Part shown: positions 2,733-63,939 of the stretch, piece by piece
Position numbering within the stretch: position 1 is the first letter of the stretch
Layout of the letters: every line of letters starts with the position of its first letter
Source: a virus
Length of the DNA: 64,000 nucleotides
Direction: 5' to 3' (one strand)
Virus record (IMG/VR): IMGVR_UViG_3300030012_002072
Location: 11,570 to 75,569 of that record
Position numbers and translations under genes: made by a program
The notes under the pieces: model-generated
Databases searched by the model: none
What the model was told of the DNA's origin: nothing
The model's input: only the letters and a program-made list of their open reading frames with translations

Positions 2733-4508
2733 TTAGCCCTCGCAACTTAAACAATCTTGTTGTTCAAAGATTATTTCTCTCTTTGCCTGAGAAGTTACAT
2801 TATCAGCACGGCTAATAGCTTCACTCCTAAGGTAATATAATGTTTTTAAATTCTTTGCCCAAGCCAACATATGAACATTGTGTAAGTCACCTTTGTTCAC
2901 ATCTGGTGGGAAGAATAAGTTTACACTTTGTGACTGACATATAAAAGGTTGTCTAACTGCAGCATGCTCAACTACCCACGATTGGTTAATTTCAACAGCT
3001 GTTTTAAATACATCTTTCTCCCAGTCATCTAGTAAATCTAAGTGTTGTACACTTCCTTTGTTTGCAACTATACTTTTCCAAGTTTCTTCGTATGTTGGTA
3101 AATGTCCTATTTTCTGCATTAGAAGTCTATCTAAGAATTTATTTTTAACTAGATTACTTCCTGTTTTGGTTTTCTGAGTATAGGCATTTGCTCTAAACGG
3201 TTCAATACTTGGTGAAGTATTACCACAAATAATACTAGAACTTGCATTAGGAGCGATAGCTAGTAAGTGAGCATTTCGCACAGAAGCAGTATCATCATCA
3301 GGACATGCCCCTCTTTCTACTGCAAGTTGTCTAGTAGTTTGTTCTGCGTTTGACTTTATAAAATCAAACATTTCTATATTAACAGAATTAGCCATTCCAC
3401 TTTCAAATGGTATACTGTTCTTTTGTAAATAGGCATGGAATCCCATTGCTCCAAGTCCAATGCTTCTCTCCCTCATAGCACTAAACTTAGCTTTTTCTAA
3501 TTGACTTGGTGCATTCTCGATAAATGAATCTAATACATTATCAAGCATACGAATCAAGTCAGGAACAAATGAACCATGAGTTTTCCACTCGTCATAATAT
3601 TCCAAATTCACACTAGAAAGACAACATACTGCTGTTCTTTCTTCATCTGTAGCAAGAGTTATTTCACTACAAAGATTACTGTGATGTACCTTTAATCCTT
3701 TTCGTTTTTGGAAGTCTGGTAAATCATTATTTACTGCATCCTCAAACATTAGATAAGGCTCTCCTGTTTCCATTCTATTCTGTAGAATTTTTACCCACAA
3801 AGCTCTAGCACTTACTGTTTTAGTGACTCGTCCGCTATGAGGGTCAATAAGAGGCCAGCTATCATCGAAATTATCAAACTTGGTAGCACTGTGAATGAGT
3901 TCCATAAACTCATCTGGAACAACCACAGCATGATGTAAATTAAGGCACTTACGATTGGTGTCACCACCAGTAGGTTTCCTAACATCTAAAAACTCCTCTA
4001 TTTCGGGGTGGCTCATATGTAGATACCCAGCGTATGAACCCCGTCTTGTCACACCCTGACTAAATGCTAACATTTCTGCATCTACAACTTTTACAAAAGG
4101 TATTACTCCAGTAGACTCTGAGCCTTTCGATGTCTTAGTTCCTACAGAACGAACATCACTCCAAGTTCCTCCGATACCACCACCAAAACTACTTAGAAAA
4201 GCATTTTCAGTAAAATGGTCTGTAATACCCTCTCTACTATCATCAACATAATTAAGAAAACAACTAATTGGTAAGCCTCTTCTTGTACCACCATTAGATA
4301 GTACGGGAGTTGCAAACATAAACCATAGTTTACTTACATAATCATATAAACGCTGTGCATGGTCATCGTCATCTGCAAATGTTTCTGCAGCACGAGCAAA
4401 TGCTTCCTGAGGTGATGTTTCACCTGGAATCATGTATCTATCTTTTAAAGTTGCTATTGCAAATTCGCCAAGCAACTCATCTCTACTATAATCTATCTTC
4501 ACTGACAT
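2733..4508 (-). CDS. nrdA: ribonucleotide reductase class Ia alpha subunit (no ATP cone)
   Basis: ATPVLSN, PISCF, SNLCSEI, IAPNASSS, KTLYY and C-terminal CLSC. Confidence 0.97.
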   Translation of the reverse strand: MSVKIDYSRDELLGEFAIATLKDRYMIPGETSPQEAFARAAETFADDDDHAQRLYDYVSKLWFMFATPVLSNGGTRRGLPISCFLNYVDDSREGITDHFTENAFLSSFGGGIGGTWSDVRSVGTKTSKGSESTGVIPFVKVVDAEMLAFSQGVTRRGSYAGYLHMSHPEIEEFLDVRKPTGGDTNRKCLNLHHAVVVPDEFMELIHSATKFDNFDDSWPLIDPHSGRVTKTVSARALWVKILQNRMETGEPYLMFEDAVNNDLPDFQKRKGLKVHHSNLCSEITLATDEERTAVCCLSSVNLEYYDEWKTHGSFVPDLIRMLDNVLDSFIENAPSQLEKAKFSAMRERSIGLGAMGFHAYLQKNSIPFESGMANSVNIEMFDFIKSNAEQTTRQLAVERGACPDDDTASVRNAHLLAIAPNASSSIICGNTSPSIEPFRANAYTQKTKTGSNLVKNKFLDRLLMQKIGHLPTYEETWKSIVANKGSVQHLDLLDDWEKDVFKTAVEINQSWVVEHAAVRQPFICQSQSVNLFFPPDVNKGDLHNVHMLAWAKNLKTLYYLRSEAISRADNVTSQAKREIIFEQQDCLSCEG

Positions 4509-43700: not shown

Positions 43701-44081
43701 TTATTTTATCTCCAAGATTTTCCTCTTAGAATTTGGAGTTCGTGACAGAGTGATTGTCAGTAATCCGTCTTGTAGATTTACTTTATCTACTTGTAAGTCA
43801 GCATTAAGAATAAATCTTCGTTCAAAAGACTTTAGACTTAATCCTTGATGAACAAAGCGTTCATCTCCGACTAGTTTGTGTTCTTTTTTACCCTTTAACT
43901 GAAGTTCCTCACCATCAGCGATTATCTCCAGCTCTTCTTTTTGCCAGCCTGGTAAAGCAATTTCTATACGATAATTACCTTTACTTTCGATTATATTATA
44001 TCTTGGATAACTTGTCTCCGTATAAGTTGGGAGCGTTGGCATATCCAATCCAAGCCAAAATTTACTTAAATCAATACTCAT
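43701..44081 (-). CDS. small heat shock protein Hsp20 (IbpA-like)
   Basis: YPRYNII, IEIALPG, HQG....FERRF, DGLLTI. Confidence 0.92.
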   Translation of the reverse strand: MSIDLSKFWLGLDMPTLPTYTETSYPRYNIIESKGNYRIEIALPGWQKEELEIIADGEELQLKGKKEHKLVGDERFVHQGLSLKSFERRFILNADLQVDKVNLQDGLLTITLSRTPNSKRKILEIK

Positions 44082-44175
44082 AATATTTTCCTCCAAAATT
44101 CCTTTTCAGTAAATTTCCATGCCTCCTTTCGGTAGACATACTAAAACGCAAGTGAAACCTATCACTTACATACTA

Positions 44176-44215
44176 ATTATACTAAATTTCTAACCTTATG
44201 TCAAGAACTATTTTT
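44176..44215 (-). promoter_or_regulatory. sigma70-type promoter of the Hsp20-lysis operon
   Basis: TTGACA (44199-44204), 17 nt, TATAAT (44176-44181). Confidence 0.85.
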
Positions 44216-44354
44216 CGGAGTCATCGAAGGTAAGGATTCCTTCTTCTTCCAAATAGTCAATTGTGCCTCTTATTCCAGTTTGTTTTCCAAAATAATAAGC
44301 ACCAGTAACACTAAAGAATAGAAATATTAGATAGCTTATATCATTTTCATTCAT
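44208..44354 (-). CDS. 48-aa membrane protein, leaderless
   Basis: ATG 7 nt after the -10; one TM. Confidence 0.6.
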   Translation of the reverse strand: MNENDISYLIFLFFSVTGAYYFGKQTGIRGTIDYLEEEGILTFDDSEK

Positions 44355-44361
44355 AGATAAT

Positions 44362-44450
44362 ATTATAACCAATTTGCCACCAAAAGTCAAGACAAAAATT
44401 ATAGTTAACCAAAAATAGTTCTTGACTTTTATCCGAAATTCGAATATAAT
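44362..44450. promoter_or_regulatory. back-to-back divergent sigma70 promoters
   Basis: Minus: TTGACT 44385-44390 / TATAAT 44362-44367. Plus: TTGACT 44422-44427 / TATAAT 44445-44450. Both have 17-nt spacers. Confidence 0.85.
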
Positions 44451-44456
44451 ATATGT

Positions 44457-44633
44457 ATGAATAAAAGATGGACTGATACAGAGCGTGATTTTCTGAAGCG
44501 ACATTATAACGACTTGTCGACAGAGGAAATTGCACTCAAACTAGACAAAACAAAAGAACAAATACATTCACAAGTTTACTACTTGCGAAAGCGAGGATGG
44601 ACTTTCAATCGGAGGAAAGATGCCGTCAGTTAA
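44457..44633 (+). CDS. 58-aa Myb/HTH-like DNA-binding protein MNKRWTDTERDFLK..., leaderless (not in ORF track)
   Basis: WT..E..FL...Y.....EEIA..L.KT pattern; ATG 6 nt after the -10. Confidence 0.7.
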   Translation: MNKRWTDTERDFLKRHYNDLSTEEIALKLDKTKEQIHSQVYYLRKRGWTFNRRKDAVS

Positions 44634-44856
44634 TTGTAAAGGAATGTCCTTCGAAAAATCTATGCGTATATTCCGTAGAAAAGTCGAGAAAGCAGGAATC
44701 AAAGATAGAATCCGAGAGAAACAATACTATGAAAAACCTGCGTCTGCTAAAAATGATGCGAATAACTATAGGAAACGCAAACGCAAATTAGACAAACAAA
44801 AGGAACACGAACTCGATTTAAAAAGAAGATTGATAATGAGACATGGAGGTCGATAA
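44620..44856 (+). CDS. rpsU: ribosomal protein bS21
   Basis: FEKSMRIFRRKVEKAGI...REKQYYEKP; GGAGG RBS. Confidence 0.9.
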   Translation: MPSVNCKGMSFEKSMRIFRRKVEKAGIKDRIREKQYYEKPASAKNDANNYRKRKRKLDKQKEHELDLKRRLIMRHGGR

Positions 44857-45265
44857 AATTTTCTTGAACAACATAACTAAATTTTACAACTCTCATTTAT
44901 CCACTAAAATATTTTTTCGTATCTAAATCGAACTACAACCCACCAACACATATACCTATGAAAAACAGTTCTTGCATTCTGCTAAAAGTTATGGTAAAAT
45001 AATACTATAAATTATGATAGTTAACCAAAACAAATCACTGATTAGAGTCGCTTATCTAATCCATGCTGAGAGCCGAGAGGAGCGAAGCGGGAACGAGGCG
45101 AGCATCTAATATGATAAATATAGACTCTTAATTGTGTTAACAATATCATTCAATGAAACCAAACAACCCCGTTCTGGGGTTAATAAATTCCAATATAACA
45201 ATTAAATTACTAAAAACTTACCCTCAATAACCACAACTTGCGCAAACCGAAAATTTTTTAAGCAA

Positions 45266-45290
45266 TAAAAAAGGGAGCAAAATACTCCCC
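45266..45290 (-). terminator. intrinsic terminator of the early operon
   Basis: GGGAGT-ATTTT-GCTCCC followed by a T-run. Confidence 0.75.
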
Positions 45291-45311
45291 TCTCATACAA
45301 GTTTCCCTTAG

Positions 45312-45515
45312 TTAGAACCAACCATCTTTAGACCTAGGAACATTGTCGTCCTGTAGCACTCTTATTCTTTGTGTTGCTACAACTTCTCTATGTCCACTAG
45401 GAAATCTTAATCTAGCTTTTACACCCGTTGGGGTTTCGATTAAACCCATGACTTCGGCGTATCTACCATGTTTCTCCACTAGCTCGTCAATCTTGCTTAG
45501 CTTACATACTCTCAT
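45312..45515 (-). CDS. hypothetical protein
   Basis: Last gene before terminator. Confidence 0.6.
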   Translation of the reverse strand: MRVCKLSKIDELVEKHGRYAEVMGLIETPTGVKARLRFPSGHREVVATQRIRVLQDDNVPRSKDGWF

Positions 45516-45810
45516 ATAATCTCCTTAGCACAGTCTTTGGTGCTTTCTCTAAACCCGCTAGGGCTTCGTTAGGTATTCCTAATTTTTCAGCTAGATTTTC
45601 TACTATTTGTATTTTTGTTATCGGTTTTTCACCAGTTTTGGTAGTATATTCAGTCTTTTTATATACTCCTTCCCTACTTAACTTACCTATAATCGATTTT
45701 ACACTTTTGTTTAGTTCATCTGCTAACATTTCTACTGTTTCTCTATTAGGGTTGAGCCTATATTGATTAACAATGTATTCTACTTGGTCTTGTGTATAGT
45801 TTACAGCCAT
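45502..45810 (-). CDS. T5 A2-like DNA-binding protein (paralog 2)
   Basis: NYT...RETV..LA.EL.KS..SIIGKLSREGVY...TTKTGE; close paralog of 50186-50497. Confidence 0.75.
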   Translation of the reverse strand: MAVNYTQDQVEYIVNQYRLNPNRETVEMLADELNKSVKSIIGKLSREGVYKKTEYTTKTGEKPITKIQIVENLAEKLGIPNEALAGLEKAPKTVLRRLYESM

Positions 45811-45953
45811 AGCATATCCTCCCATCTTCTGACTAACATTTCTACTTGGTATACTGACATACCCCATTCTTCACTAGCAATTCGTATTGCTTCTTCACGA
45901 CCATGAATCTTCTCCCAGTCGTAGTATTCAAACTCTCTATCGTCTTTCTGCAT
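45801..45953 (-). CDS. 50-aa hypothetical protein MQKDDREFEYYDW... (not in ORF track)
   Basis: Translated by hand; fills the gap with overlaps. Confidence 0.5.
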   Translation of the reverse strand: MQKDDREFEYYDWEKIHGREEAIRIASEEWGMSVYQVEMLVRRWEDMLWL

Positions 45954-46221
45954 TGTGTCTTTCAAACTCCATAACTAATTCTTCACCAGTTAATTGCTTA
46001 CCGATATATACTATTGCTCCGTTGTCTAGTGTTCTTTCCACTAAACCATCATTAAACATTCTATCACAAACGGACTTACCATTTTCAGTATCTTTAGGTC
46101 TGGTATCATACCACATCGAACTTAAACTATGACAATGAATACCTTTTACACCTTTTGCCCATTCTTCTGCTTCTAGAAGTAATCGTTGTTTTTCTACTTT
46201 ATCACTAAACTGTCCCATCAT
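45937..46221 (-). CDS. hypothetical protein
   Basis: GGAG RBS, operon packing. Confidence 0.6.
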   Translation of the reverse strand: MMGQFSDKVEKQRLLLEAEEWAKGVKGIHCHSLSSMWYDTRPKDTENGKSVCDRMFNDGLVERTLDNGAIVYIGKQLTGEELVMEFERHNAERR

Positions 46222-46343
46222 GTATTGTCTCCATCTCTATACTCTACTGAATGTTTAGCAAATATTTTGTTCGCTTGTCTTTGGAATGACTTTTCTATAA
46301 TTCTATCAATCCATTTCCTTAGTATCTGCCTAAATTTCCCCAT
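46218..46343 (-). CDS. 41-aa hypothetical protein MGKFRQILRKW... (not in ORF track)
   Basis: AGGAG RBS; ATGA overlap downstream. Confidence 0.5.
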   Translation of the reverse strand: MGKFRQILRKWIDRIIEKSFQRQANKIFAKHSVEYRDGDNT

Positions 46344-46968
46344 TCAATTCTCCTGTATCAAAGAAGTTATACACAACTTCGTCTAGCCACTCCTGTGGAA
46401 CTATACCTGTGTCTTTGTATTCTTCCCACCAGTCAAAGTCATCACTAGATAGGTCACATTTCAACTTATCTTCTAGCATTGCATTTAAATCGCCACCATC
46501 AATATATTCTTCACTATGACAGCAATACCACTCATCATCTTTATAAGTTTCAAAGTTATCTCTACCTATGAAGTTTCTGAACTCATCTTCATATGTCATA
46601 ATTGCACTTAGTTCAACATTAAATCTATTACTTGCATACTCCAATAGATTTTCTACCATAGAAATAGGTGCTGACCATGCACTGTAGCCTTGTAGTCTAG
46701 GATAATCCCATTCATCTACACTTACCCACTTTGCACCACAATTATTTACATACCACATATAAGAATCTTCAATCCAACCCTCTTTGTCGTATGTTCTGTC
46801 CACTTTAGACATGAAAGGTTGCTCATGAATCTCTACGAGTTCTTCATACTCTATTTCTTCCTTGCCGTTCCAATGTGGTCGTTTTACTACTTCACTTTTG
46901 AACAAGCATGTATGCTGTTCTTCAGTTAAACCATCAATTTCGATGTTAAAATACACATGATTTGCCAT
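46330..46968 (-). CDS. DUF1281/YubB-like hypothetical protein
   Basis: MANH, W...N.GAKW, SAWSAP, YEDE. Confidence 0.6.
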   Translation of the reverse strand: MANHVYFNIEIDGLTEEQHTCLFKSEVVKRPHWNGKEEIEYEELVEIHEQPFMSKVDRTYDKEGWIEDSYMWYVNNCGAKWVSVDEWDYPRLQGYSAWSAPISMVENLLEYASNRFNVELSAIMTYEDEFRNFIGRDNFETYKDDEWYCCHSEEYIDGGDLNAMLEDKLKCDLSSDDFDWWEEYKDTGIVPQEWLDEVVYNFFDTGELNGEI

Positions 46969-47402
46969 TATATATCCCCCTTTTCTCTGACTTCACTTCT
47001 TATTACCTCAAAACCATTAGGATATCGCTTTTCTAGCTTCCTAATGTTTTCATCCATTACTTCATCAGGTGTAAAACCTAATGCTTTGCATCCTTGAACC
47101 CAATACCATAATACATCACCGAGTTCTCGTTTCATATGGAAAATTTCATCGTTTGAGAACTTACTATCTGCTTGAAATACCTTTTTCTTTACAACTTCAG
47201 CAAATTCTCCACTTTCTGCCATCATTCCTATCAATGCAGTCATCAATCTTGCCATATCTACCTCTTGTTCGAGGACTTCATTACCTTTCATTGAGTAATT
47301 ACCTCTTAAATAATCCAATCGTTCACACATTTTAGAGGTATCCTTAGATGTGTTTGAGGTGCAATGGTCAACGAACATAGCATATTCGTTTATTTTACTC
47401 AT
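46968..47402 (-). CDS. MazG-like nucleotide pyrophosphohydrolase
   Basis: ESGEFAEVVKK, RELGDVLWY, NIRKLEKRYP. Confidence 0.88.
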   Translation of the reverse strand: MSKINEYAMFVDHCTSNTSKDTSKMCERLDYLRGNYSMKGNEVLEQEVDMARLMTALIGMMAESGEFAEVVKKKVFQADSKFSNDEIFHMKRELGDVLWYWVQGCKALGFTPDEVMDENIRKLEKRYPNGFEVIRSEVREKGDI

Positions 47403-47620
47403 TTAGCACCTCCTATTACGATTTTAAACTTGTTTTCTGGTATCAAAACTTCACTACTGATAACTTTACCATTAGCAAGTTCTACATCCATGTGTGGAAC
47501 ACAGTTCCTAGCAGGACAACCATTGAATTTAGACTTTGGTTGAGTCCCTTCAGGATATCGAATTGCTACTATAGTGCTACCATTTGCTTTCATACCTACT
47601 TTATAATGTTTACTTGCCAA
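47399..47620 (-). CDS. hypothetical protein
   Basis: TTG start, operon packing. Confidence 0.5.
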   Translation of the reverse strand: MASKHYKVGMKANGSTIVAIRYPEGTQPKSKFNGCPARNCVPHMDVELANGKVISSEVLIPENKFKIVIGGAK

Positions 47621-47888
47621 TGTCTTTCACTTCTCCTTTTGGTATCACTTGGTATGCACCTTTGTTGTAAGCAATCGATACCGTGTATTGCTTACTGATG
47701 TCTTTCTTGTATGAAGTATCTTCAGGCACAGTATATTCTCCAACTGGTGCACTTGGATAATCTTCACTCTTTTTAAATTGTTTACTTTGTTGCTTAGTAA
47801 AATTTGGTTTCGCTTTTTTACTTCGCTTTCCTACTTGTTTGCGTTTACGACCATGAATGTCGTATCCTAGACTGCCTTTAATTATCAT
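47610..47888 (-). CDS. conserved phage hypothetical protein
   Basis: Basic N-terminus, AYNKGAYQV; GGAGG RBS. Confidence 0.65.
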   Translation of the reverse strand: MIIKGSLGYDIHGRKRKQVGKRSKKAKPNFTKQQSKQFKKSEDYPSAPVGEYTVPEDTSYKKDISKQYTVSIAYNKGAYQVIPKGEVKDIGK

Positions 47889-48084
47889 AATCCTCCAAAC
47901 TGATGTTATATATTTCACACAGTCGATTTAACATTGTTTCATATTCAACTGTCAACTCGACTATATGTTCGTTAAGATGTTGTAAATCATCAAGGCATAA
48001 CTTGATTTCTTCTTCGTGAAGTTTAAGTTCTGCCTTGATTTTCTGCCCCTCTGTAATGGTAGGGAATTGTATGACCTTACCCAT
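47878..48084 (-). CDS. hypothetical coiled-coil protein
   Basis: MGKVIQFP start motif. Confidence 0.6.
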   Translation of the reverse strand: MGKVIQFPTITEGQKIKAELKLHEEEIKLCLDDLQHLNEHIVELTVEYETMLNRLCEIYNISLEDYDN

Positions 48085-48160
48085 ATTTATTATTGTCGTT
48101 GTTGTCAAAATACATATAGATTAAGAACATTGCCACTAGAATTAATACTGTTAAGTCCAT
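48077..48160 (-). CDS. 27-aa single-TM peptide MDLTVLILVAMFLIYMYFDNNDNNKYG
   Basis: Translated by hand; TAATG overlap. Confidence 0.45.
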   Translation of the reverse strand: MDLTVLILVAMFLIYMYFDNNDNNKYG

Positions 48161-48336
48161 TATCCACACACCTCGTCCCATTTCTTTGCATCGATTGGTG
48201 TATGCATTGTTACTTTTACTTTCTTGTGGTTAGGTTTTGCTACTGAATACTCTAATTCAATACCTGCACCTCTTAGAATTGCTACTTTCTTTTTGAAAGT
48301 CTGAAAGTCTTTTTGTGATAGAATTGCTACTGTCAT
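48160..48336 (-). CDS. 58-aa hypothetical protein MTVAILSQKDF...
   Basis: Translated by hand; ATGA and TAATG overlaps. Confidence 0.55.
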   Translation of the reverse strand: MTVAILSQKDFQTFKKKVAILRGAGIELEYSVAKPNHKKVKVTMHTPIDAKKWDEVCG

Positions 48337-48470
48337 TTGCCTTGCCCCCTGTATTTCTTGTAAGAACGCTTTTTGTTCTTGTTCATATTGATACTAAATG
48401 TGCCACGACCATTGCCTTGTGAAGTTTTCTTCTTGTGCGACACATGATTATTTCCCCATGCTTTTGCCAT
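48333..48470 (-). CDS. 45-aa basic protein ending KKRSYKKYRGQGK
   Basis: Translated by hand; AAGGAG RBS, TAATG overlap. Confidence 0.65.
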   Translation of the reverse strand: MAKAWGNNHVSHKKKTSQGNGRGTFSINMNKNKKRSYKKYRGQGK

Positions 48471-48688
48471 TATGCACTCTCCTTAGTATTCCATACCACT
48501 TTTATACCTCGTCTTGCGAGTTCGTTTAGGCACTTCTGCCTTTGCTTTGGTTTCACATTAGATTTGTTAATCTCTGCGAATAATTCTTCCTTTGGTGTAT
48601 TCTTGAGATAGTAGTGTCTTACAGGTAGTTGACTTGCAGGAACACCTCTCTTATACACTTTTTCTGATGGTTTAAACTTTGCTGGCAT
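48470..48688 (-). CDS. 72-aa basic hypothetical protein MPAKFKPS...
   Basis: AAGGAGG RBS before ATG at 48688. Confidence 0.7.
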   Translation of the reverse strand: MPAKFKPSEKVYKRGVPASQLPVRHYYLKNTPKEELFAEINKSNVKPKQRQKCLNELARRGIKVVWNTKESA

Positions 48689-48823
48689 TATGCCCTCCTT
48701 ATAAATAAAAATTGTTAATCTAAGTGTAGTGTCTACCTCCTCCACTACTGCTGATTGTCGGTATCAGAACCCCACACTCATTAATCTAGGAAAATGTGGT
48801 TTCCTTTTTCTTTTTATACATAT

Positions 48824-48862
48824 ATTATACTCACTTTTATACTGATTGTCAAGAACTATTTT
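48824..48862 (-). promoter_or_regulatory. sigma70-type promoter with a ~130-nt structured leader
   Basis: TTGACA (48847-48852), 17 nt, TATAAT (48824-48829). Confidence 0.85.
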
Positions 48863-48903
48863 GAATTAAGGTAGGAAATTTCGTGTGTCTACTTTTTGAA
48901 GAT

Positions 48904-48936
48904 AAAAAAAGAGGGAAGCGTTGATTAACTTCCCTC
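48904..48936 (-). terminator. intrinsic terminator ending the large ncRNA
   Basis: GAGGGAAG...CTTCCCTC followed by T7. Confidence 0.85.
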
Positions 48937-49880
48937 CAAAAAACTGTTTGTTTTTTACTTGAAGACTTACTGCCCCACTAAGTAGTTTACTCTGGGAGGG
49001 GGACTTGCCCACCAAACCAATCTTTCAACTATCCTCGCAGTAAGTGTGGAGTTCTCTATACGCCACTCAGTCTGCAATTAGATTATAAGCATCGCTTCCT
49101 CTAATCTCGTGATGTGGCTCTATAAACTCCTTCGCCCATGACACCTATGCTCGCATTTACTTGAGGGTGAGGATTGAAGACTTGGGGTGTTCACATCGAA
49201 ATGCTACTTACTGGTATCTTCCAAATCACATCACTTGCACACTGAAGTGTCGTTTTTCTACTTTGACAGGTAAACCATGAATCGCCGTAGAGTTAAGTGC
49301 TGTCCGTTCACAGTCGACAGCATACTGATTGCAATAAGTGTGTTGCAATCCACATTGAGTTTTCTCCTTGTATCCACTCTTTATACATCAGTCGCTCTAC
49401 CTAAAGTATATGCTGTTGTGTATAAACCCTGTTTCGTGTCAGCGTGGTTTCTTCACTCTATCTGATATTATCGTAGTATCTGATGTCAATCACGGTGTAA
49501 TTTTGGATTTGCACTTGCTAATATACACTAACACAAGGTTTTTAAGTGCCGACACACTCCTGAAGGGGTTTCTCTCTACGCTACTTACCACCAGTGGACT
49601 ACAATCATGGGTGTTGACCTATGTAGTTTGGCATTACTGATAAGAGTAGAATCCTTACTTCTTTACCGACCAGTCAATCGAATATGCACTCCCTTTTATG
49701 TTCGCAAAATATGTCTGCATACGACTATCAAAACTACGCATATTATCTCTCTGTTACTGCACCTCTCAATATGTTTTGAGCATCAGGCATTTTTTATGTG
49801 ATGCCTCACGAAGTAGCAATCCTTTGTCGTGGTAAAACATTACGCACTTGGTTTGCTTTATTTGTTTCTTTTCAGAATAT
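48904..49880 (-). ncRNA. candidate large structured non-coding RNA (~975 nt)
   Basis: Own promoter and terminator; no minus-strand ORF of 60 aa or more; many local and long-range complementary segments. Confidence 0.75.
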
Positions 49881-49886
49881 AAGTAT

Positions 49887-49915
49887 ATTATATCCGCTTT
49901 TTAACCTTTTGTCAA
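49887..49915 (-). promoter_or_regulatory. promoter of the large ncRNA
   Basis: TTGACA (49910-49915), 17 nt, TATAAT (49887-49892). Confidence 0.87.
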
Positions 49916-50014
49916 GAAAAATTTTGATTTATTTCTTGAAAGGTGGGGTCGAGTTGCTACCATCAAATTGGTCTGTTATCTCGACCCCTTCTCTCTTTTC
50001 TCAAATATATGTAT

Positions 50015-50043
50015 ATTATACATACTTCAAGACCAGTTGTCAA
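50015..50043 (-). promoter_or_regulatory. gene-less promoter reading into a 9-bp hairpin and on towards the ncRNA
   Basis: TTGACA (50038-50043), 17 nt, TATAAT (50015-50020). Confidence 0.82.
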
Positions 50044-50073
50044 TAGAAAATGTGATTTATTTTCTACTTAACT

Positions 50074-50156
50074 CACTTTTAAACTGGGTGTAGGAGTCGA
50101 ACCTACCACCACCCCAACGGGTATGCTTCCATAGACACTTCCCCAGTTTAAAAGTG
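50074..50156 (-). ncRNA. tRNA-like element with truncated anticodon arm and 15-bp closing stem
   Basis: T-arm GTAGG-TTCGACT-CCTAC, D-arm with GG, ACCC-GTTG-GGGT mini arm, no CCA. Confidence 0.6.
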
Positions 50157-50185
50157 GATTACTTAGGGTAATCACTCCTTGACAC

Positions 50186-50497
50186 TTATTGTGAGATTGC
50201 GTCAACTAATCTTTGTAGGTCTTGCTTACCTGCTTTGACAAGTGTTGGAAGTTCAATTCCAAAGTGTTCTGAGATAGTTGCTACAAGTTCTGCCTTTGCT
50301 ACAACTGGTTCGCCAGTTTTAGTAGTTCTTGGTTGTGCCTTGTAAACGCCTTCTCTTGAAAGTTTAGCAATGATACTTCTTGTAGTTTTGCCAAGTTCTC
50401 TAGCAAGTTCATCTACTGTTTCCCTAGTAGGGTTTGCTGTGTATTGCTCAGTCATTTGAGCAACCATTTCGTCTGTATAATTTTTAGCGTTTGCCAT
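50186..50497 (-). CDS. T5 A2-like DNA-binding protein (paralog 1); longer in-frame isoform from 50602
   Basis: NYTDE..., SIIAKLSREGVY, C-terminal K..LV ... L.KA.K..L; GGGAG RBS. Confidence 0.78.
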   Translation of the reverse strand: MANAKNYTDEMVAQMTEQYTANPTRETVDELARELGKTTRSIIAKLSREGVYKAQPRTTKTGEPVVAKAELVATISEHFGIELPTLVKAGKQDLQRLVDAISQ

Positions 50498-50524
50498 TTT
50501 GTTTTTTCTCCCGATTAAAATAAT

Positions 50525-50659
50525 ATTATATCCAATTTGTCTTGTTTTGTCAAGAACTTTCTTGAAAAACTTTGATTTATTTTTTTGCTTTGATTTTTTC
50601 ATCTGTTCTCTCCTCATTCAATATACATATATTATATACGCTTTGTCGAGGATAGTCAA
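50525..50659 (-). promoter_or_regulatory. two tandem sigma70 promoters of the A2-like gene
   Basis: TTGACA 50548-50553 / TATAAT 50525-50530 and TTGACT 50654-50659 / TATAAT 50631-50636. Confidence 0.85.
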
Positions 50660-50672
50660 GAAAAACTTTGAT

Positions 50673-51290
50673 TTATTTTAGATTTTCTACTACTTTGTTA
50701 ATCAAAGCAAGACGACCTTCTGCTTTCACATTGTAGTCAATGCTATGCCATTCTCCAAGTGTAGTGAACACTCTCTCCTTAAGAATTGTCATCTGGTCAT
50801 ATTTTGACAGTGCTATCGCATCGTTGGGTGAGAACTTCCACTTTGTTAGTGGTGAACTCTGTCTTTTGTCGATGCGATACTCCTGTTCTTCTTCGGAAAT
50901 TGACAACCAGCATTTGATAAACTTTACACCAGACTGTCTGCTTTCCCATTCTAGCACATTGTCCATGAACTCATTGTATTGATACTCTGTGCACCAACCA
51001 TTGAGGTATTGAACCATTGCTCTTGAATACCAACTTCTGTCGAAGAATACGATTTGATTATCACTTGGCAACTTATGTTCCCAACTTTCCAACCAGTTCG
51101 CCATTTCTACTTCTGTCGGTTTAGAACTGAATGACACGCTGTATTTACTTGTCGGCAAATAGTGGGTAAGTTCACGGATTGTCCCTGTTTTACCTGCTGT
51201 ATCACGACCTTCTAGTATTACAGCAACTCTGCCAAAGTCATGCTCAACGATTTGATTGAGTTTGATTTGTGCTTGTTGTAGTTGTGTCAT
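50673..51290 (-). CDS. ppk2: polyphosphate kinase 2
   Basis: EGRDTAGKTG, FDRSWYSR, WKFSPND. Confidence 0.92.
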   Translation of the reverse strand: MTQLQQAQIKLNQIVEHDFGRVAVILEGRDTAGKTGTIRELTHYLPTSKYSVSFSSKPTEVEMANWLESWEHKLPSDNQIVFFDRSWYSRAMVQYLNGWCTEYQYNEFMDNVLEWESRQSGVKFIKCWLSISEEEQEYRIDKRQSSPLTKWKFSPNDAIALSKYDQMTILKERVFTTLGEWHSIDYNVKAEGRLALINKVVENLK

Positions 51291-51313
51291 GTCGTTCTCC
51301 TAAATATGTATAT

Positions 51314-51342
51314 ATTATACTCGCTTTTATACTCATTGTCAA
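51314..51342 (-). promoter_or_regulatory. promoter of ppk2
   Basis: TTGACA (51337-51342), 17 nt, TATAAT (51314-51319). Confidence 0.85.
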
Positions 51343-51765
51343 CAAAAAATGCGAAGTATTTATAAAAAACCACAGTTTAATTCGGGGGGCGGGACGCGAA
51401 ACCTGTTCGGGTGCTTCGCAAAACTTCCAAAAAACGCAAAAAACTTGCATTAATTGTTGACAACCCCGCAAAAGCGTGTTATACTATAATTAACCTAATT
51501 ATAGACTAGTGCATCACTTTGACACTTCGTTTTAGCACTCACGCATCACTTTAGCACTCATCACTTTTGCACTCTGGCGCGGTTCGCGCAAACGATTCGA
51601 CCTATAAAACCGCTGTTTTAGCGGGGTTAGGCGAATATTGGGGAAACGATGTGGCTAATAATGGAATACAGCGCAGGCAAGACTTAATAAAGTGAAATAG
51701 TGATAAAAAATTAAAAAAACGCTTGACACCCGCAAAAGATTGTGATATAATCGGCGCGATTTGCC

Positions 51766-51785
51766 TGTGGATAACTTGTGGATAA
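51766..51785 (-). promoter_or_regulatory. two tandem perfect DnaA boxes
   Basis: TTATCCACA on the minus strand at 51766-51774 and 51777-51785. Confidence 0.8.
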
Positions 51786-51848
51786 ATATTTTTAAAATAA
51801 TTTGCTTTTCCTATTGACAATGCTTGAAAAATCATTATAATAGATAGC

Positions 51849-51989
51849 ATGAAAAACGAAAAGAAAGTTGAAAAAACAAAAGCAACATTAGTTCGTGAAG
51901 TAGAAGTAAAATTCAAAAAGGACAAAGGTTTCTTTGACTCCTTAGAAAGAGCAAACAAAGAAACAATCGTCAAATTACTCTCTCTTTAG
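51849..51989 (+). CDS. 46-aa leaderless protein resembling the isolated C-terminal domain of A2-like proteins
   Basis: MKNEKKVEKTKATLVREVEVKFKKDKGFFDSLERANKETIVKLLSL; TTGACA 51814 / TATAAT 51836 upstream. Confidence 0.65.
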   Translation: MKNEKKVEKTKATLVREVEVKFKKDKGFFDSLERANKETIVKLLSL

Positions 51990-52079
51990 TCGACAGTTGT
52001 TAATAGTTTCCGAAGTGTAAGTTACTTTGTTCCTCAAAACTAATCATCTGTTCCTATTGGCACGGAGCAGGTGGTCGCC

Positions 52080-52125
52080 AACCCGACAGATGTCCTAGAG
52101 GAACGGACAAATGTCGGGTTTTTTT
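52080..52125 (+). terminator. long terminator-like hairpin
   Basis: AACCCGACA..TGTCC-loop-GGACA..TGTCGGGTT plus T-run. Confidence 0.75.
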
Positions 52126-52209
52126 GTTAAAAAATTTTAAAAAACCTCTTGACAAATGTGAAAAAGCGTGCTACAATACTAGGGTGGCGGGCGGGATACC
52201 CACGAGACT

Positions 52210-52229
52210 TGTGGATAACCTGTGGATAA
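52210..52229 (-). promoter_or_regulatory. two tandem perfect DnaA boxes
   Basis: TTATCCACA on the minus strand at 52210-52218 and 52221-52229. Confidence 0.8.
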
Positions 52230-52457
52230 GTCGGCTTCGCCCAGGTAGACTTTGCACTTGCTTCACTTTTCCACTCTGGCGCAGACGCATCACTTTAACA
52301 CTCATCACTTTTCCACTCTGGCGCAGGGGCGCGCTGTAAATCGCTGTAATTTTATATCACGCAGGGGGTGTCCCTCAAAATTAATTGACGAAAAAAAAGT
52401 GGTGGAAGAATCCAGCAATCTTTGATATAATCTCAGTATGAGTTTTCTTCCACCTTG

Positions 52458-52553
52458 CTAGAGGTCGAGACTTCTAGCTATGACTGTGAGGGGTAGCTTA
52501 GTGCGAGTTCGTTATCCCTTCCCCTAGAGGTCGGTTAGTGCGAGTTCGTTATC
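52458..52553. repeat. interleaved direct repeats TTAGTGCGAGTTCGTTATC (52498-52516, 52535-52553) and CTAGAGGTCG (52458-52467, 52524-52533)
   Basis: Exact matches read directly. Confidence 0.88.
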
Positions 52554-52679
52554 GCTGTTTCCCTCTCAATCAATAAATATATTATCGGTGATGTTGCCCA
52601 AAAAGTCAAGAAAAAAATGAAAAAAAGTTAAAATATTTTTTTAATTATTTTTTCGAAAAGACTTGACAAAACTCAAACG

Positions 52680-52716
52680 CACCTTTAAACTTAAACTATG
52701 TTTAAGTTTAAAGGTG
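52680..52716. repeat. perfect 17-bp inverted repeat with 3-nt loop
   Basis: CACCTTTAAACTTAAAC-TAT-GTTTAAGTTTAAAGGTG. Confidence 0.92.
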
Positions 52717-52738
52717 TGTCAAGTTTCTTGACAAGGAC

Positions 52739-52772
52739 AAAAAAAAAGGGGGCAAATTGCCCCCTTTCTTTT
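52739..52772. terminator. bidirectional intrinsic terminator ending the putative pre-early operon
   Basis: A-run, GGGGGC-AAATT-GCCCCC, T-rich tail. Confidence 0.85.
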
Positions 52773-52785
52773 CGCATACTCCCCT

Positions 52786-53292
52786 CTAAAAAAATCGGTC
52801 ATTCCATTCTTTAGCGTTAATGGATATGCCCCCCATATCTTGAATTGCCCCAAGATTTAATTGGTTATCATCATAGAAAAATTTTTCTAAATGCTTGAAT
52901 GGTTTAAGATTAAAAAAGGGATTCAATAACCTCTTTTTTAATTTCCAATCAACAGTTGTTTCGCCAATCTTCCTAGACTTAACATAATCATAGTAAATAC
53001 CCATTGAATGAATATACTCCCAATCCCATTTGCCAAGCTCTCTAGCTGTGCATAAGATAATGATATGCCCTTGCTTGTAGTCCATTTCTAATTGCTTATA
53101 CATAGGCAACAAATCATCTTTAAAAATGTTTTCCTTAGTATTGTTAGCTTTCCAATGTTCAAGGTCTAAGTTTCCATTTTCATCATGCCTTGCTCTATGG
53201 CTAGAATCTATTATTGTGCCATCTAGGTCATAAATCATAATTTTCGGATTCATGTTCCATAGTCTAGGACAAAATTCAGTTTTCTGTTTCAT
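52786..53292 (-). CDS. HAD-family phosphatase (PNK-phosphatase / nucleotidase-like)
   Basis: YDLDGTI, CTAR, K, YDDN motifs. Confidence 0.82.
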   Translation of the reverse strand: MKQKTEFCPRLWNMNPKIMIYDLDGTIIDSSHRARHDENGNLDLEHWKANNTKENIFKDDLLPMYKQLEMDYKQGHIIILCTARELGKWDWEYIHSMGIYYDYVKSRKIGETTVDWKLKKRLLNPFFNLKPFKHLEKFFYDDNQLNLGAIQDMGGISINAKEWNDRFF

Positions 53293-53567
53293 ATCGCCCC
53301 CCATTGATTAAGCAAATTTGTTGCTTGTGCGAAGAACATAACAATAGTAAGAAACATTAATTTTCTCTTGTTCTCATTCCATGCAACCCAATAGATAGCA
53401 AGGTTTCCAGAAAAAACCATAAACCAAGCATAAAGAGGGGGCAAGGGCAATAGCCCTTGAATCCCCAACGCTATCAAAAATGTTGAAAGAGTAAAAACAA
53501 CATTATTAATATCTTTTCTTTTTTGATAGTGAACATCACGAAGATAATTTTGATCCGATTTAAACAT
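53289..53567 (-). CDS. membrane protein (3 TM)
   Basis: Hydrophobic segments; GGGG RBS. Confidence 0.6.
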   Translation of the reverse strand: MFKSDQNYLRDVHYQKRKDINNVVFTLSTFLIALGIQGLLPLPPLYAWFMVFSGNLAIYWVAWNENKRKLMFLTIVMFFAQATNLLNQWGAI

Positions 53568-53757
53568 CTTTCAACCCCTTTTTCATTTGGATTTTATTCA
53601 TCTGTTCCATGTGTCGCCATGCTCTATCTTCTGCTTTCGCCTTTTTCCAATCTTCATCTGACTGAAATCCATGCCTTTTGAAATCAGGAATTTCTTTTTT
53701 CAGTTTTCTGATTATCTCGGAATCAGGTTTAAATTCTAACTCTAATTGTTTAACCAT
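53560..53757 (-). CDS. hypothetical protein
   Basis: GGGGG RBS; operon packing. Confidence 0.6.
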   Translation of the reverse strand: MVKQLELEFKPDSEIIRKLKKEIPDFKRHGFQSDEDWKKAKAEDRAWRHMEQMNKIQMKKGLKDV

Positions 53758-54634
53758 TTTTACCCCCTATTAGTTTCAATTCTTTTTGAGTTGGATATTT
53801 TTTCAATACCTCTTTATTACCTAATCGAATCTGTCTTTTATCTTTAGCTGTCAATCCTCTTTTAATATAAGAGTTATGAACAGGTTTAATATAATTAACA
53901 TATTCTTTTTTAATTATATTTTTCCATTTACCCCAAAACAATGAGAGTAAACCAAATTCAAGTTTACTATCTCTCAATGCTGTATGAGATTCAACATAGG
54001 AAAAATCTTTTGTTCTGTATCGTTGGACACATTCAGCCGAATAAGAGTAATTTCCCCCCTCGGTCATTACTTGCTCTTTTAAATCATCATCAAGGTTATC
54101 AACATAATTTTGATAATCTCGATTCATATATAAAGAACTAGCAATATCCATGATACATAGAATATCAACATTTCTTGGCATATACCAAACATCATCTGTT
54201 AATTGAGAATGAGTGTGTCTAATTACTCCCCCTTTTTCTGATGATGTTCCAATGTCAAATTGAAAATTATAACTAGCCAAATAATCAACGCCCATTGTTT
54301 TGCACATTGTGTTGAATTCTAACATTATATCTTTCCAAGGTTTAACCTTATGAGGATTATCAATAGCGTCTTGCAACGCCCTCTCCATAGACTTGTTATA
54401 GGTATAACCTTGCTTATCCTTGAATTTTCCCTCAATCTTTTCTTGATGAAGAAAATATTTCAATTCTCGAATTACCTCTTTTGGATAATAATCCATAGTA
54501 AAAACCTCGAAAGAATCAGACTGTTCAAGGTCGCCAAAGGTCGCCCCGAAATGATAAACATATCGGGGATTCCCATTTTTCCAAGAGGTTTCTGTGTCTA
54601 TGACACAAGCAACAGTATGATTATTTTTGGTCAT
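53750..54634 (-). CDS. DEDDh 3'-5' exonuclease
   Basis: IDTET, YNFQFD, HTALRD. Confidence 0.8.
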   Translation of the reverse strand: MTKNNHTVACVIDTETSWKNGNPRYVYHFGATFGDLEQSDSFEVFTMDYYPKEVIRELKYFLHQEKIEGKFKDKQGYTYNKSMERALQDAIDNPHKVKPWKDIMLEFNTMCKTMGVDYLASYNFQFDIGTSSEKGGVIRHTHSQLTDDVWYMPRNVDILCIMDIASSLYMNRDYQNYVDNLDDDLKEQVMTEGGNYSYSAECVQRYRTKDFSYVESHTALRDSKLEFGLLSLFWGKWKNIIKKEYVNYIKPVHNSYIKRGLTAKDKRQIRLGNKEVLKKYPTQKELKLIGGKNG

Positions 54635-61734: not shown

Positions 61735-62161
61735 GTTAGATTTAACACTACCTGAGATTCCATTTAACTACGAACAGATAGAACAAGATTCTTTACGAAT
61801 ACAAGAAGCAATAAATAAGCGTGCTAGATTTGTACAAATAAAGAATGAACCAAGTAAAAGAACATTAAGAACTTATTACATTCTTAATTTTATTGATATG
61901 ACAACTTCATATCATATGACTAACAATCATCCGAATATAAAGGAAGCTAACTTTCTATTGCCGGAAAAGCCTACTGCTGCAGAATTTTTAATACACAAAT
62001 CTGTTACAGCCCCTTTTGCTGCAGCTAATTTAGAGGAGGGGCAAATGGTATTAGTAAACTGGTTGCTTGCAGGAGTAATAGTAAGAAACTTATACTTATA
62101 TAAAACAACTTGCAAACAATCTGCTAACTATGACATTACAGGAAGAAATATAAATTGTTAA
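61625..62161 (+). CDS. hypothetical exported/membrane protein (start uncertain)
   Basis: Signal-like segment, D..TS and EAN motifs; operon packing. Confidence 0.55.
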   Translation: MDKLDITSYWNKMVKVTMLSLAMVPMSLLASSNQAAKLDLTLPEIPFNYEQIEQDSLRIQEAINKRARFVQIKNEPSKRTLRTYYILNFIDMTTSYHMTNNHPNIKEANFLLPEKPTAAEFLIHKSVTAPFAAANLEEGQMVLVNWLLAGVIVRNLYLYKTTCKQSANYDITGRNINC

Positions 62162-63939
62162 ATAAAATTATCACAATAGTACTATTTATGGGATTGCTAA
62201 TATGGAATCCTGGTATCATGCAAAGAGTCGAACTAATTGGTTACGACTACTTAATTATGAATACTGAACCAGTACAGAACGAAAACATTCTTATTGTAGA
62301 CCTTGATGAAGATTTACTTAAGACTTACGGGGGTTGGCCACTACCAAGGTCTCTCTATGGAGATTTGATAACAACTACAAATGCCATAGCGGGATTTACA
62401 GTACTGATGCCAAACCCTGACATTCGTGGCAAAGACTATGATAAATACTTTGCCATGAGAATGGAATACCAAGCAACAGTCCTTGCTTCAGCAGCATCGA
62501 CACAAGTTACTGGGATTAATCCTCATGTAGGAACTGCCCAGATAGGAGAAGACCCAACACCATGGCTATATCAATACCCAGGAATTTTACCTACCGCGTC
62601 TACGCTGGAGTCAAGCGCAAGGGGACTCGGACTAGTAACCGCTACACCGGAACTAGACGGGGTTACTCGTCGTATTCCCCTAGTCGCAAGCGTAGAGTCA
62701 AAACTTTACCCAAGCTTCGCACTAGAACTCTTAAGAGTCGCCGTGTCAGACCCGTCGTACCAGTTAAAAACAACAAAAGAAGGCGTTTCTTGGGTTAGAA
62801 TACCAAACTACCCATTAATGAATACAGATGCGAATGGTCGTATCTTTTTGAACTGGAATACTAAATTTTACAAACAAACAGGATTGGAGTTTTTAGAAAA
62901 CCCTATAGATGCTCCCTTTGTTATATTCGGCACGACTGCAGAGGGTATAACAAATCCTGTGCCGACCCCTGCGGGGGCTAAATACCCACATGAAATACAA
63001 GCAAACGTTTTACATAATCTTATTACTGGGACTGCTCCTAGCCAACCAACTTGGGCACCAGGAGTTGAAATACTTGGAACCTTCCTCGGATTACTACTTC
63101 TCGCCTTTGCCACAAGGAGTGTGTATCTCTCAATCCCAACCCTCGGACTTATTATCGGCGGTAGTTTATATGGAGCCTGGCATTTATATAAATCTTCCTA
63201 CTTGTTCGATGTTAGCGGTATCGTAATTATCTGCATTGGGTTTTGGAGTATTCATACATTCCTGAGTTTCTTATCCGAGTATCGTCAGAAACTTCGAATC
63301 AAACAACAATTTGGCACGTACGTTAGTCCCGACCTGGTTAAAAAACTCCAGGAAGACCCATCATTACTGAGATTGGGTGGGTCGACAGAACGACTCACTT
63401 TTCTTTTTTCGGATATACGAGGATTTACCCCCATCTCTGAAAAATACCAGAAGAATCCACAAGGACTTACTAATCTGATAAATCGATTCCTCGACAATCA
63501 GACTCAGATAATTCTCAAGCATGGAGGTACAATAGATAAATACATGGGAGACTGCATCATGGCATTTTGGGGTGCTCCTCTTCCAGATGAAAATCATAAA
63601 CAAAATGCAACAGCAGCACTTGTAGAAATGAGAAGTGCTTTGGAGGAATTAAATGAAAGACTCAGAGAAGAAGGCTTGGATACGATTAATACAGGAGCGG
63701 GAATCAACTCGGGGCTATGTGTCGTCGGAAACTTTGGTAGCAGTAATCGTTTTGATTACAGCGTCCTTGGCGATAGTGTCAATCTGGCTGCTAGGTTAGA
63801 ATCAAGTTGCAAAAATTATGATGTAGACAATGTGATTTCTGAGTACAGTTTGGTTGATGGTTATGATTACGACTATCTTGACGAAGTGACTGTAAAAGGT
63901 AAGTCTGAACCTGTAAAAATCTATACCATACGAAAATAG
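62155..63939 (+). CDS. CHASE2-domain class III adenylate cyclase
   Basis: GGWPLPR, DGVTRR.PL, 3 TM, FSDIRGFT, DKYMGD, DYSVLGDSVNLAARLE. Confidence 0.93.
   Translation: MLNKIITIVLFMGLLIWNPGIMQRVELIGYDYLIMNTEPVQNENILIVDLDEDLLKTYGGWPLPRSLYGDLITTTNAIAGFTVLMPNPDIRGKDYDKYFAMRMEYQATVLASAASTQVTGINPHVGTAQIGEDPTPWLYQYPGILPTASTLESSARGLGLVTATPELDGVTRRIPLVASVESKLYPSFALELLRVAVSDPSYQLKTTKEGVSWVRIPNYPLMNTDANGRIFLNWNTKFYKQTGLEFLENPIDAPFVIFGTTAEGITNPVPTPAGAKYPHEIQANVLHNLITGTAPSQPTWAPGVEILGTFLGLLLLAFATRSVYLSIPTLGLIIGGSLYGAWHLYKSSYLFDVSGIVIICIGFWSIHTFLSFLSEYRQKLRIKQQFGTYVSPDLVKKLQEDPSLLRLGGSTERLTFLFSDIRGFTPISEKYQKNPQGLTNLINRFLDNQTQIILKHGGTIDKYMGDCIMAFWGAPLPDENHKQNATAALVEMRSALEELNERLREEGLDTINTGAGINSGLCVVGNFGSSNRFDYSVLGDSVNLAARLESSCKNYDVDNVISEYSLVDGYDYDYLDEVTVKGKSEPVKIYTIRK

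Follow-up and report, generated by a model that had tools for sequence, protein, structure and literature searches.

A gene for a structured non-coding RNA of ~977 nt lies on the minus strand at 48904..49880 of the window, by which we mean the whole 64,000-nt stretch of viral DNA analysed here. The gene is recognized from its promoter and terminator, its homologs, the covariation among those homologs and contigs assembled from RNA libraries, and its product represents a new class of giant phage RNA that is of the GOLLD and ROOL kind and a member of neither family. A preliminary description of this DNA had read the region as a large structured non-coding RNA of no known class, and that overall reading is supported by the conserved unit, the lack of a conserved open reading frame, covariation, a null result with Rfam and the occurrence of the RNA in metatranscriptome assemblies. 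The element occurs as a single copy in the 75.6-kb IMG/VR virus record that contains the window. All positions in the lists and in the structure are window coordinates, and an RNA position is 49881 minus the window coordinate. The features of the region are as follows.

50015..50043, minus strand: promoter P2, perfect consensus, reading into the RNA unit, 128 nt upstream of P1
49887..49915, minus strand: promoter P1, a perfect TTGACA-17-TATAAT
48904..49880, minus strand: gene for the ~977-nt structured non-coding RNA
49821..49880, minus strand: A-rich 5' leader with AAN/ARN-like repeats
49798..49809, minus strand: hairpin GUGA/UCAC, 100% paired, 3 of 4 pairs changed on both sides
49739..49773, minus strand: loop-to-downstream pseudoknot-type pairing, 49769-49773/49739-49743
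49666..49722, minus strand: 5' domain helices, 49716-49722/49682-49688 with a nested UUU/AAA (CCU/AGG) helix
49666-49681, minus strand: 5' domain hairpin with the conserved loop UUGACUGG
49545..49558, minus strand: hairpin AGUGU/GCACU with loop NUCG (helix 4 of alignment A1), in 20 of 23 homologs, 8 variants
49440..49542, minus strand: conserved core with two predicted pseudoknots
49253..49439, minus strand: variable region with clade-specific hairpins, for example 49327-49350 and 49298-49322, differing in length and sequence by clade
49140..49251, minus strand: module E, closing stem GACAC/GUGUC (49247-51/49140-44)
48957..49139, minus strand: 3' domain, conserved within sub-clades only (alignment A5)
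48904..48956, minus strand: conserved CAAGUAAAAAAC...GUUUUUU hairpin, then the intrinsic terminator, 15 pairs, terminator stem with compensatory changes

Judged from its sequence, the stretch from 49880 to 48904 on the minus strand is an independent transcription unit with a sigma-70 consensus promoter of the host type. The preliminary description had called a perfect TTGACA-17-TATAAT promoter and a strong terminator, and both calls hold, with the promoter P1 at 49915-49887 on the minus strand and a terminator stem at 48937-48910 of 10 pairs (5 G-C) that is followed by TTTTTTT. The predicted RNA start is at ~49880, and the U-run of the terminator ends at 48904 on the same strand. Three more promoters had been said to point into the unit; the one at 50043 (P2) is indeed dedicated to it, but those at 50553 and 50659, further upstream, are the ones driving a 143-aa gene. 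The gene downstream of the RNA has its own perfect promoter at 48852-48824. The order of promoter, RNA and terminator is conserved in position across homologs: every one of the 19 homologs extending to the 5' end has a P1-like promoter 32-39 nt ahead of the profile start, 17 of these 19 have a second promoter 140-341 nt upstream, and the terminator is followed ~50 nt later by the next promoter in nearly all homologs, while the length of the unit ranges from 886 to 1221 nt among relatives (977 nt in the window). Having its own promoter and an intrinsic terminator, the RNA would therefore be made as a discrete molecule and not as the leader of the next gene. The 10 kb of window 44000-54000 contain eight perfect 12/12 sigma-70 consensus promoters: six precede early genes and the RNA on the minus strand, and two, at 51723 and 51814 on the plus strand, are oriented the opposite way. 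Between P2 and P1 lies a hairpin, GGGGUCGAG...CUCGACCCC (49945-49995, minus strand), which is covered by the RNA-library contig X6 49609-49980 and could belong to the RNA as a 5' extension or be a small transcript of its own.

Metatranscriptome mapping had been proposed as a check on transcription, and the RNA is present in RNA-library assemblies of four studies, as assembled contigs for which strand is not given. These contigs, from which strand, ends and level cannot be read, cover 48937-49980 with no or few differences: X10 spans 48978-49241 and 49212-49894; X6 spans 48997-49288, 49259-49638 and 49609-49980; X19 spans 49293-49850; and X20 spans 48937-49125. They overlap across the whole molecule and share no break point. 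Contig depths over the RNA are 30-215, which are values for assembled contigs and not a true level, and RNA libraries can carry DNA. The rest of 47000-52000 is mostly without cover from RNA contigs, and its uncovered parts are not proof of silence. Nine RNA runs contain at least half the words of a 1.6-kb query, which is approximately the RNA's share of that query. One contig of X6 (49609-49980) runs through P1. This pattern of cover fits an abundant discrete RNA together with some read-through from P2.

Nothing in the region behaves as a protein-coding gene. It had been noted that no sense ORF of 60 aa or more is present, and the longest in the 977 nt are in fact 49 and 40 aa; several homologs have no sense ORF of at least 35 aa over ~940 nt. 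A conserved reading frame was sought on both strands across homologs and was not found, nor is any small ORF conserved. Frames are open across the conserved blocks in a minority of homologs at most, whichever strand is considered, and the lengths of these blocks fall into all three classes modulo 3. ORFs of 82-90 aa overlap the RNA on the plus strand but show no conservation of frame. Long ORFs are to be expected by chance on the antisense strand, where stop codons are scarce because of the purine-rich sense strand (56% A+G).

The carriers of the RNA are a lineage of uncultured marine T5-like phages. In the phage of the window, the family A polymerase is 47% identical to those of Salmonella and Escherichia T5-like phages, and there are other T5-like replication genes (a DnaB-like helicase, an NAD-ligase piece and RNR) and D5/A2-like helix-turn-helix proteins in the early region. 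The RNA occupies a fixed place in that early-gene region, between the A2/D5-like gene and a 91-aa gene, in an invariant gene order: ppk2 - p143 - RNA - p91 - p45 - (p58) - p76 - p102 - p73 - mazG - p212. Among the auxiliary genes of the window are a PPK2 polyphosphate kinase (50673-51290, minus strand), a MazG pyrophosphohydrolase (46968-47402, minus strand) and a 594-aa cyclase-like protein (62155-63939, plus strand) that is ~36% identical to homologs in pelagimyophage HTVC008M and Methylophilales phage Melnitz. Immediately after the RNA, 48333-48745 on the minus strand encodes a basic protein of 91 aa (probably 72 aa) and a 45-aa protein that is very rich in Lys and Arg (PHROG 17967), and both small proteins are present in every syntenic locus. 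These two are no more than candidate RNA-binding partners, and comparison of the neighboring small proteins with Pfam, PHROGs and a protein atlas returned no informative family.

T5 itself has a large tRNA cluster. The suggestion that the RNA sits beside tRNAs, as large phage RNAs often do, did not stand: ARAGORN finds no tRNA or tmRNA in the 64-kb window, Rfam gives no tRNA match, and the complete 105-kb relative has no tRNA gene. Across that relative (G001, 105,272 bp with terminal repeats) and G000 and G002-G004, the number of tRNA genes is zero or one. An anticodon-less tRNA-like element does occur at 50074-50156 on the minus strand, in the 3' untranslated region of the 143-aa gene and ~190 nt upstream of the RNA start. 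An extended acceptor-like stem of 15 bp and a perfect T-arm (GGUUCGACUCC) are recognizable in it, and a short hairpin replaces the anticodon arm; its fold has -36.8 kcal/mol (z = -3.6), and it gives a weak match of 20 bits to tRNA-Sec and is not called by ARAGORN. The T-arm motif is found upstream of the RNA in 7 of 19 homologs, and the equivalent region of the distant homolog L032 has a weak match to a Y-RNA-like element (YrlA, E = 3.7).

With the 143-aa upstream protein, 58 related syntenic viral loci were retrieved, and an iterated nhmmer search with the 977-nt query detected the RNA in 46 of them. A scan for conserved motifs added ~14 further loci, and one exact 24-base core subtype is present in 31 marine metagenome contigs. 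Exact searches for this core motif and the module E motif found neither in 185,579 prokaryotic species, one genome each, and blastn of the RNA region against 50,697 phage records gave no match, so there is no cultured relative with a close copy. The sequence profile left the RNA undetected in 11 loci of the most distant syntenic clade (L045-L056). The same gap is present in these loci as a promoter-to-promoter stretch of 690-1070 nt (most about 870-1070), and a covariance model of the core gives weak matches at the equivalent place, with E = 2e-4 for L045, 17 bits with filters off for L046 and marginal results for four others.

As a single sequence, the 977-nt transcript folds modestly better than its shuffles (MFE -250.7 kcal/mol, z = -2.0); this is weak evidence of folding, and the case for structure therefore rests on comparison with relatives. 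At least 14 predicted helices are supported by compensatory changes, three pseudoknot-type pairings among them. Controls were made by sliding the pairing partners and, for the covariation score, by 500 shuffles. The alignments gave the following values.

A1, 5' domain: 25 sequences, 20 pairs in 4 helices, 95.8% of cells paired (slid 33-47%)
A6, hairpin 49798-49809 and loop pairing 49769-73/49739-43: 21 sequences, 12 pairs, 98.7% of cells paired (slid 21-58%)
A3, core 49440-49542: 14 sequences, 24 pairs, 88.7% of cells paired (slid 26-50%)
A4, core, model-aligned: 39 distinct sequences, 23 pairs, 87.3% of cells paired (slid 26-45%)

Covariation in these alignments is strong and strand-specific, with 87-99% of cells paired against 21-58% when slid, and none of the 500 shuffles matched the observed covariation score in A1, A3, A4 or A6. 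Changes affecting both partners are seen for 16 of the 20 A1 pairs, in 115 cells compared with 14-24 in the slid controls; in A4, changes on both sides were found for 19 of 23 pairs. The core pseudoknots were first read by eye and then tested on A3 and A4. Helices S1 and S3 of the core stand outside the covariance model, yet 89-90% of their A4 cells pair, and S1 exists in at least seven Watson-Crick variants (CUUG/CAAG, CCUG/CAGG, CUUC/GAAG, CGAG/CUCG, GGAG/CUCC, CAUC/GAUG, CGAC/GUCG, GGAA/UUCC). A1 and A4 contain ~90 G-U cells; read from the opposite strand these would turn into A-C mismatches, and the fold is therefore that of the minus-strand transcript. The structure supported by covariation covers part of the molecule, the variable region and the 3' domain being resolved within sub-clades only.

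Several automated approaches to the fold were set aside. Global RNAalifold on the profile alignment returned few pairs because variable hairpins were misaligned, and RNAalifold on the core alignment A2 returned only 3 because the core is pseudoknotted. A column-wise stack search and a slack-tolerant stem search were discarded after a decoy pairing rule produced 28 "conserved" stems compared with 29 for the real one, and averaged base-pair probabilities gave local hairpins only.

The predicted architecture is modular: a 5' domain with its pseudoknot is followed by a core, a variable region, module E (a self-contained junction module) and a 3' domain. The first ~20 nt of the A-rich leader are conserved (alignment columns 1-20, mean identity 0.85 over the corresponding columns). 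The GUGA/UCAC hairpin is kept in 18 of 18 homologs in 8 variants, and its invariant loop GGC is complementary to an invariant GCC at 49786-49788. The pairing 49769-49773/49739-49743 is 97.9% paired, with 4 of 5 pairs changed on both sides, and is found in 17 of 18 homologs in 11 variants, while the 5' domain helices are kept in 22 of 22 and 22 of 23. The core of ~100 nt is almost universally conserved, and its two predicted pseudoknots have near-invariant joining strands (GAUUGAC, AGAUAC and UAAAACAG). In the first of them S1 (49534-37/49514-17) is crossed by S2 (49524-28/49495-99), in the second S3 (49492-94/49472-74) is crossed by S4 (49477-84/49460-67), and S5 is a hairpin at 49441-49459. 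Besides its closing stem, module E has a GUGC/GCAU helix (49237-40/49147-50), a hairpin that varies and, left unpaired, a conserved CAAGUAA(A)UGNGA strand; its pattern is UCAGWGUGCRAG - hairpin - CAAGUAAUGNGAGCAUAG. The closing stem has at least 4 bp in 31 of 33 distinct copies, compared with 26% for shuffled partners, and exists in 12 or more variants. The 3' domain holds a 39-nt inserted module that is specific to the window (with the GGGCAAGUCCC hairpin).

It is this comparative analysis, and not the base pairs listed in the preliminary description, from which the supported structure comes. Its nine listed helices were tested in homologs outside the window's own clade, where eight do no better than shifted controls, being kept in 0-7 of 8-33 homologs, and two of these eight (49681-87/49738-44 and 49511-16/49544-49) clash with helices that covariation supports. 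The ninth, 49785-90/49801-06, shares an invariant GGC/GCC core with a real feature but competes with the covarying hairpin GUGA/UCAC. L002 and L017 alone keep 49327-34/49343-50, through a compensatory change from G-C to A-U, and it is not kept beyond the closest relatives. The two alternative long-range partners offered for 49811-18 are not conserved. A 10-mer said to recur is real, and it turns out to be part of the 39-nt module, which is placed differently in the closest relatives.

That module is one sign of traffic within the family. It corresponds to RNA positions 855-893 (window 48988-49026) and is 97% identical to a segment placed elsewhere in L017 and L002; in L017 it lies at 1427-1465, and in these closest relatives it is just upstream of module E. 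The mini-hairpin GGGCAAGUCCC is the module E hairpin of other relatives and is also found in the terminator loop of L030. From the shifting 39-nt segment and this mini-hairpin, it appears that small modules move around within the RNA family. Module E also occurs alone, in a ~380-nt intergenic region of the unrelated phage contigs L063, L075, L077 and L110, and looks like an independent RNA motif of ~75-100 nt with no match in Rfam. In L063 it is at 2960-3060, in the gap between two same-strand genes; L060 has two copies, at 3588-3658 and 3912-4065, ~330 nt apart; and lone copies are found in L088 and L109 as well.

Comparison with known RNAs returned no family to which this one could be assigned. 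Neither the window nor any of 12 homologous loci matches Rfam 15 at gathering scores, and nothing relevant appears at E <= 10 for the RNA region or at E <= 5 for the distant homolog L032. The searches that had been suggested, for GOLLD, ROOL, introns, RNase P and tmRNA, all came back without a match: the GOLLD (RF01998) and ROOL (RF03087) models find nothing in the window, the 12 loci or L032, tmRNA was ruled out by the lack of both an ARAGORN call and an Rfam match, and group I and group II introns and RNase P RNA were ruled out by the lack of a covariance-model match. A literature search found no description of this RNA. Fremin et al. (2023) reported structured-RNA candidates in IMG/VR based on covariation, 8,495 of them from DNA viruses and 67 nt in average length (PMC10690425). 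A transcription unit of ~1 kb or an architecture of this type is not described in the parts of that report that were searched, and short pieces of the RNA may be among its candidates, which were compared by description only (PMC10690425).

The closest parallels are GOLLD and ROOL. GOLLD is a phage-encoded RNA of >800 nt with many pseudoknots, marine representatives and high expression during infection (PMC12286853), and it shares with the RNA described here its large size, phage origin, many pseudoknots and division into a conserved and a divergent part (PMC12286853). The conserved part of GOLLD is its 3' half, whereas here it is the internal ~100-nt double-pseudoknot core together with the junction module. 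Unlike GOLLD, moreover, this RNA has no adjacent tRNA genes, is carried by T5-like marine phages and displays no oligomerization signature in a scan for palindromic loops. ROOL is an ornate RNA of phages and prophages with multiple pseudoknots and no known protein partner (PMC12286853). The window RNA is likewise phage-encoded and ornate with multiple pseudoknots, but it is ~1.6 times longer, lies in no tRNA island, has different helices and conserved sequences, and has no Rfam match.

What such an RNA does for the phage can be approached from its unpaired sequence. Across 15 RNAs, AGUAA occurs 80 times where 36 are expected, with at least four copies in 12 of the 15, and its complement UUACU occurs 0-2 times per RNA. 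Conserved AGUAA-type copies are found in module E and the 3' tail as well as in 5' domain joining strands, and the approximately two-fold enrichment could partly reflect structural motifs (GNRA-like GUAA, loop-E-like AGUA). Our best guess, in which we have slightly more confidence than doubt, is that this stand-alone, previously undescribed large structured RNA acts in trans as an early scaffold or decoy, a function we infer. As an architectural RNA, it would be at high copy number and act early in infection, and its several unpaired (C)AAGUA(A/G) copies, A-rich leader and U-tail would bind or titrate a protein, which may be a host RNA-binding factor or a small basic phage protein encoded just downstream. 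In this way the phage would be helped to gain control of RNA metabolism or translation in the host. Like the sponge RNAs (CsrB/RsmZ, or 6S RNA as a decoy), it is predicted to be an abundant stand-alone transcript with a strong promoter and terminator and a repeated short unpaired motif; unlike them, it has (C)AAGUA where they have GGA, is far larger and has a conserved pseudoknotted core with no counterpart there, and the likeness is one of functional speculation only.

The repeated AGUAA motif, the leader of A-rich AAN repeats and the U-tail are the reason that a protein-binding scaffold or decoy is favored, ahead of an assembly of RNA only and, in third place, a ribozyme. In the second of these, kissing loops and A-minor contacts would join folded monomers into a closed homo-oligomer of the GOLLD and ROOL kind with no protein. 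The size class, phage origin, pseudoknots and modular build of conserved and divergent parts recall those two RNAs (PMC12286853), the neighboring genes point to no protein partner, and the RNA appears highly abundant in RNA libraries as judged from contigs. However, it matches neither GOLLD nor ROOL in sequence or structure and has no tRNA island nearby. In GOLLD and OLE, symmetric kissing loops leave a signature of loop tetramers or hexamers that stay palindromic while changing (PMC12286853), and our scan of the alignment for such loops gave only invariant ATAT and TATA. We regard a protein-free particle as unlikely, if worth keeping in mind. A large ribozyme, or a catalytic RNA that binds a ligand or another RNA, with the double-pseudoknot core as its active site, is a more doubtful proposition. 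Near-invariant joining strands held by covarying helices are a pattern typical of catalytic and ligand-binding cores, but no Rfam ribozyme (group I and II introns, RNase P, small self-cleavers) matches, there are no flanking exons or mobile-element genes, and the RNA contigs overlap across the whole molecule with no shared break point.

Readings in which the region works in cis or as DNA fare worse still. The position of the RNA directly upstream of a conserved same-strand gene, and the plus-strand ORFs of 82-90 aa that overlap it, would suit a cis-acting role, either as a very long leader or attenuator of the 91-aa gene or in antisense control of a gene on the plus strand. Such a role is highly improbable given the strong terminator, the downstream gene's own consensus promoter ~50 nt later in nearly all homologs, and antisense ORFs that are expected by chance and not conserved in frame. 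A further alternative, of an element acting as DNA (an injection-stop region or replication origin) or a set of tiny protein genes, has precedent: non-coding DNA rich in repeats is found in early regions of T5-like phages, and phage early genes are often very small. Yet the covariation is strand-specific with ~90 G-U cells, no small ORF is conserved, and the region is covered by RNA-library contigs and counted as transcribed, and we give this explanation hardly any credence. A bolder version of our own conclusion, that the RNA is the founding member of a third giant phage RNA class, with protein-free assembly or a catalytic core and with module E as a free-standing functional unit, is tentative and to our minds rather doubtful as a whole. 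If it is true, other phages would be employing module E by itself, and a third class would stand after GOLLD and ROOL.

Large bacterial and phage RNAs without known function are very few (OLE, GOLLD, ROOL, HEARO and raiA), and each of them has led to new structural biology. The RNA described here is longer than most of those and combines unusually clear covariation, at least three predicted pseudoknot-type pairings and a modular build with an abundance sufficient for assembly from small ocean metatranscriptomes, making it a candidate for cryo-EM and chemical probing. The lineage that carries it is widespread and, unlike T5, has few or no tRNA genes. The RNA may therefore offer a route to the roles of giant phage RNAs outside the tRNA islands of GOLLD and ROOL, among early genes and their sigma-70 promoters.
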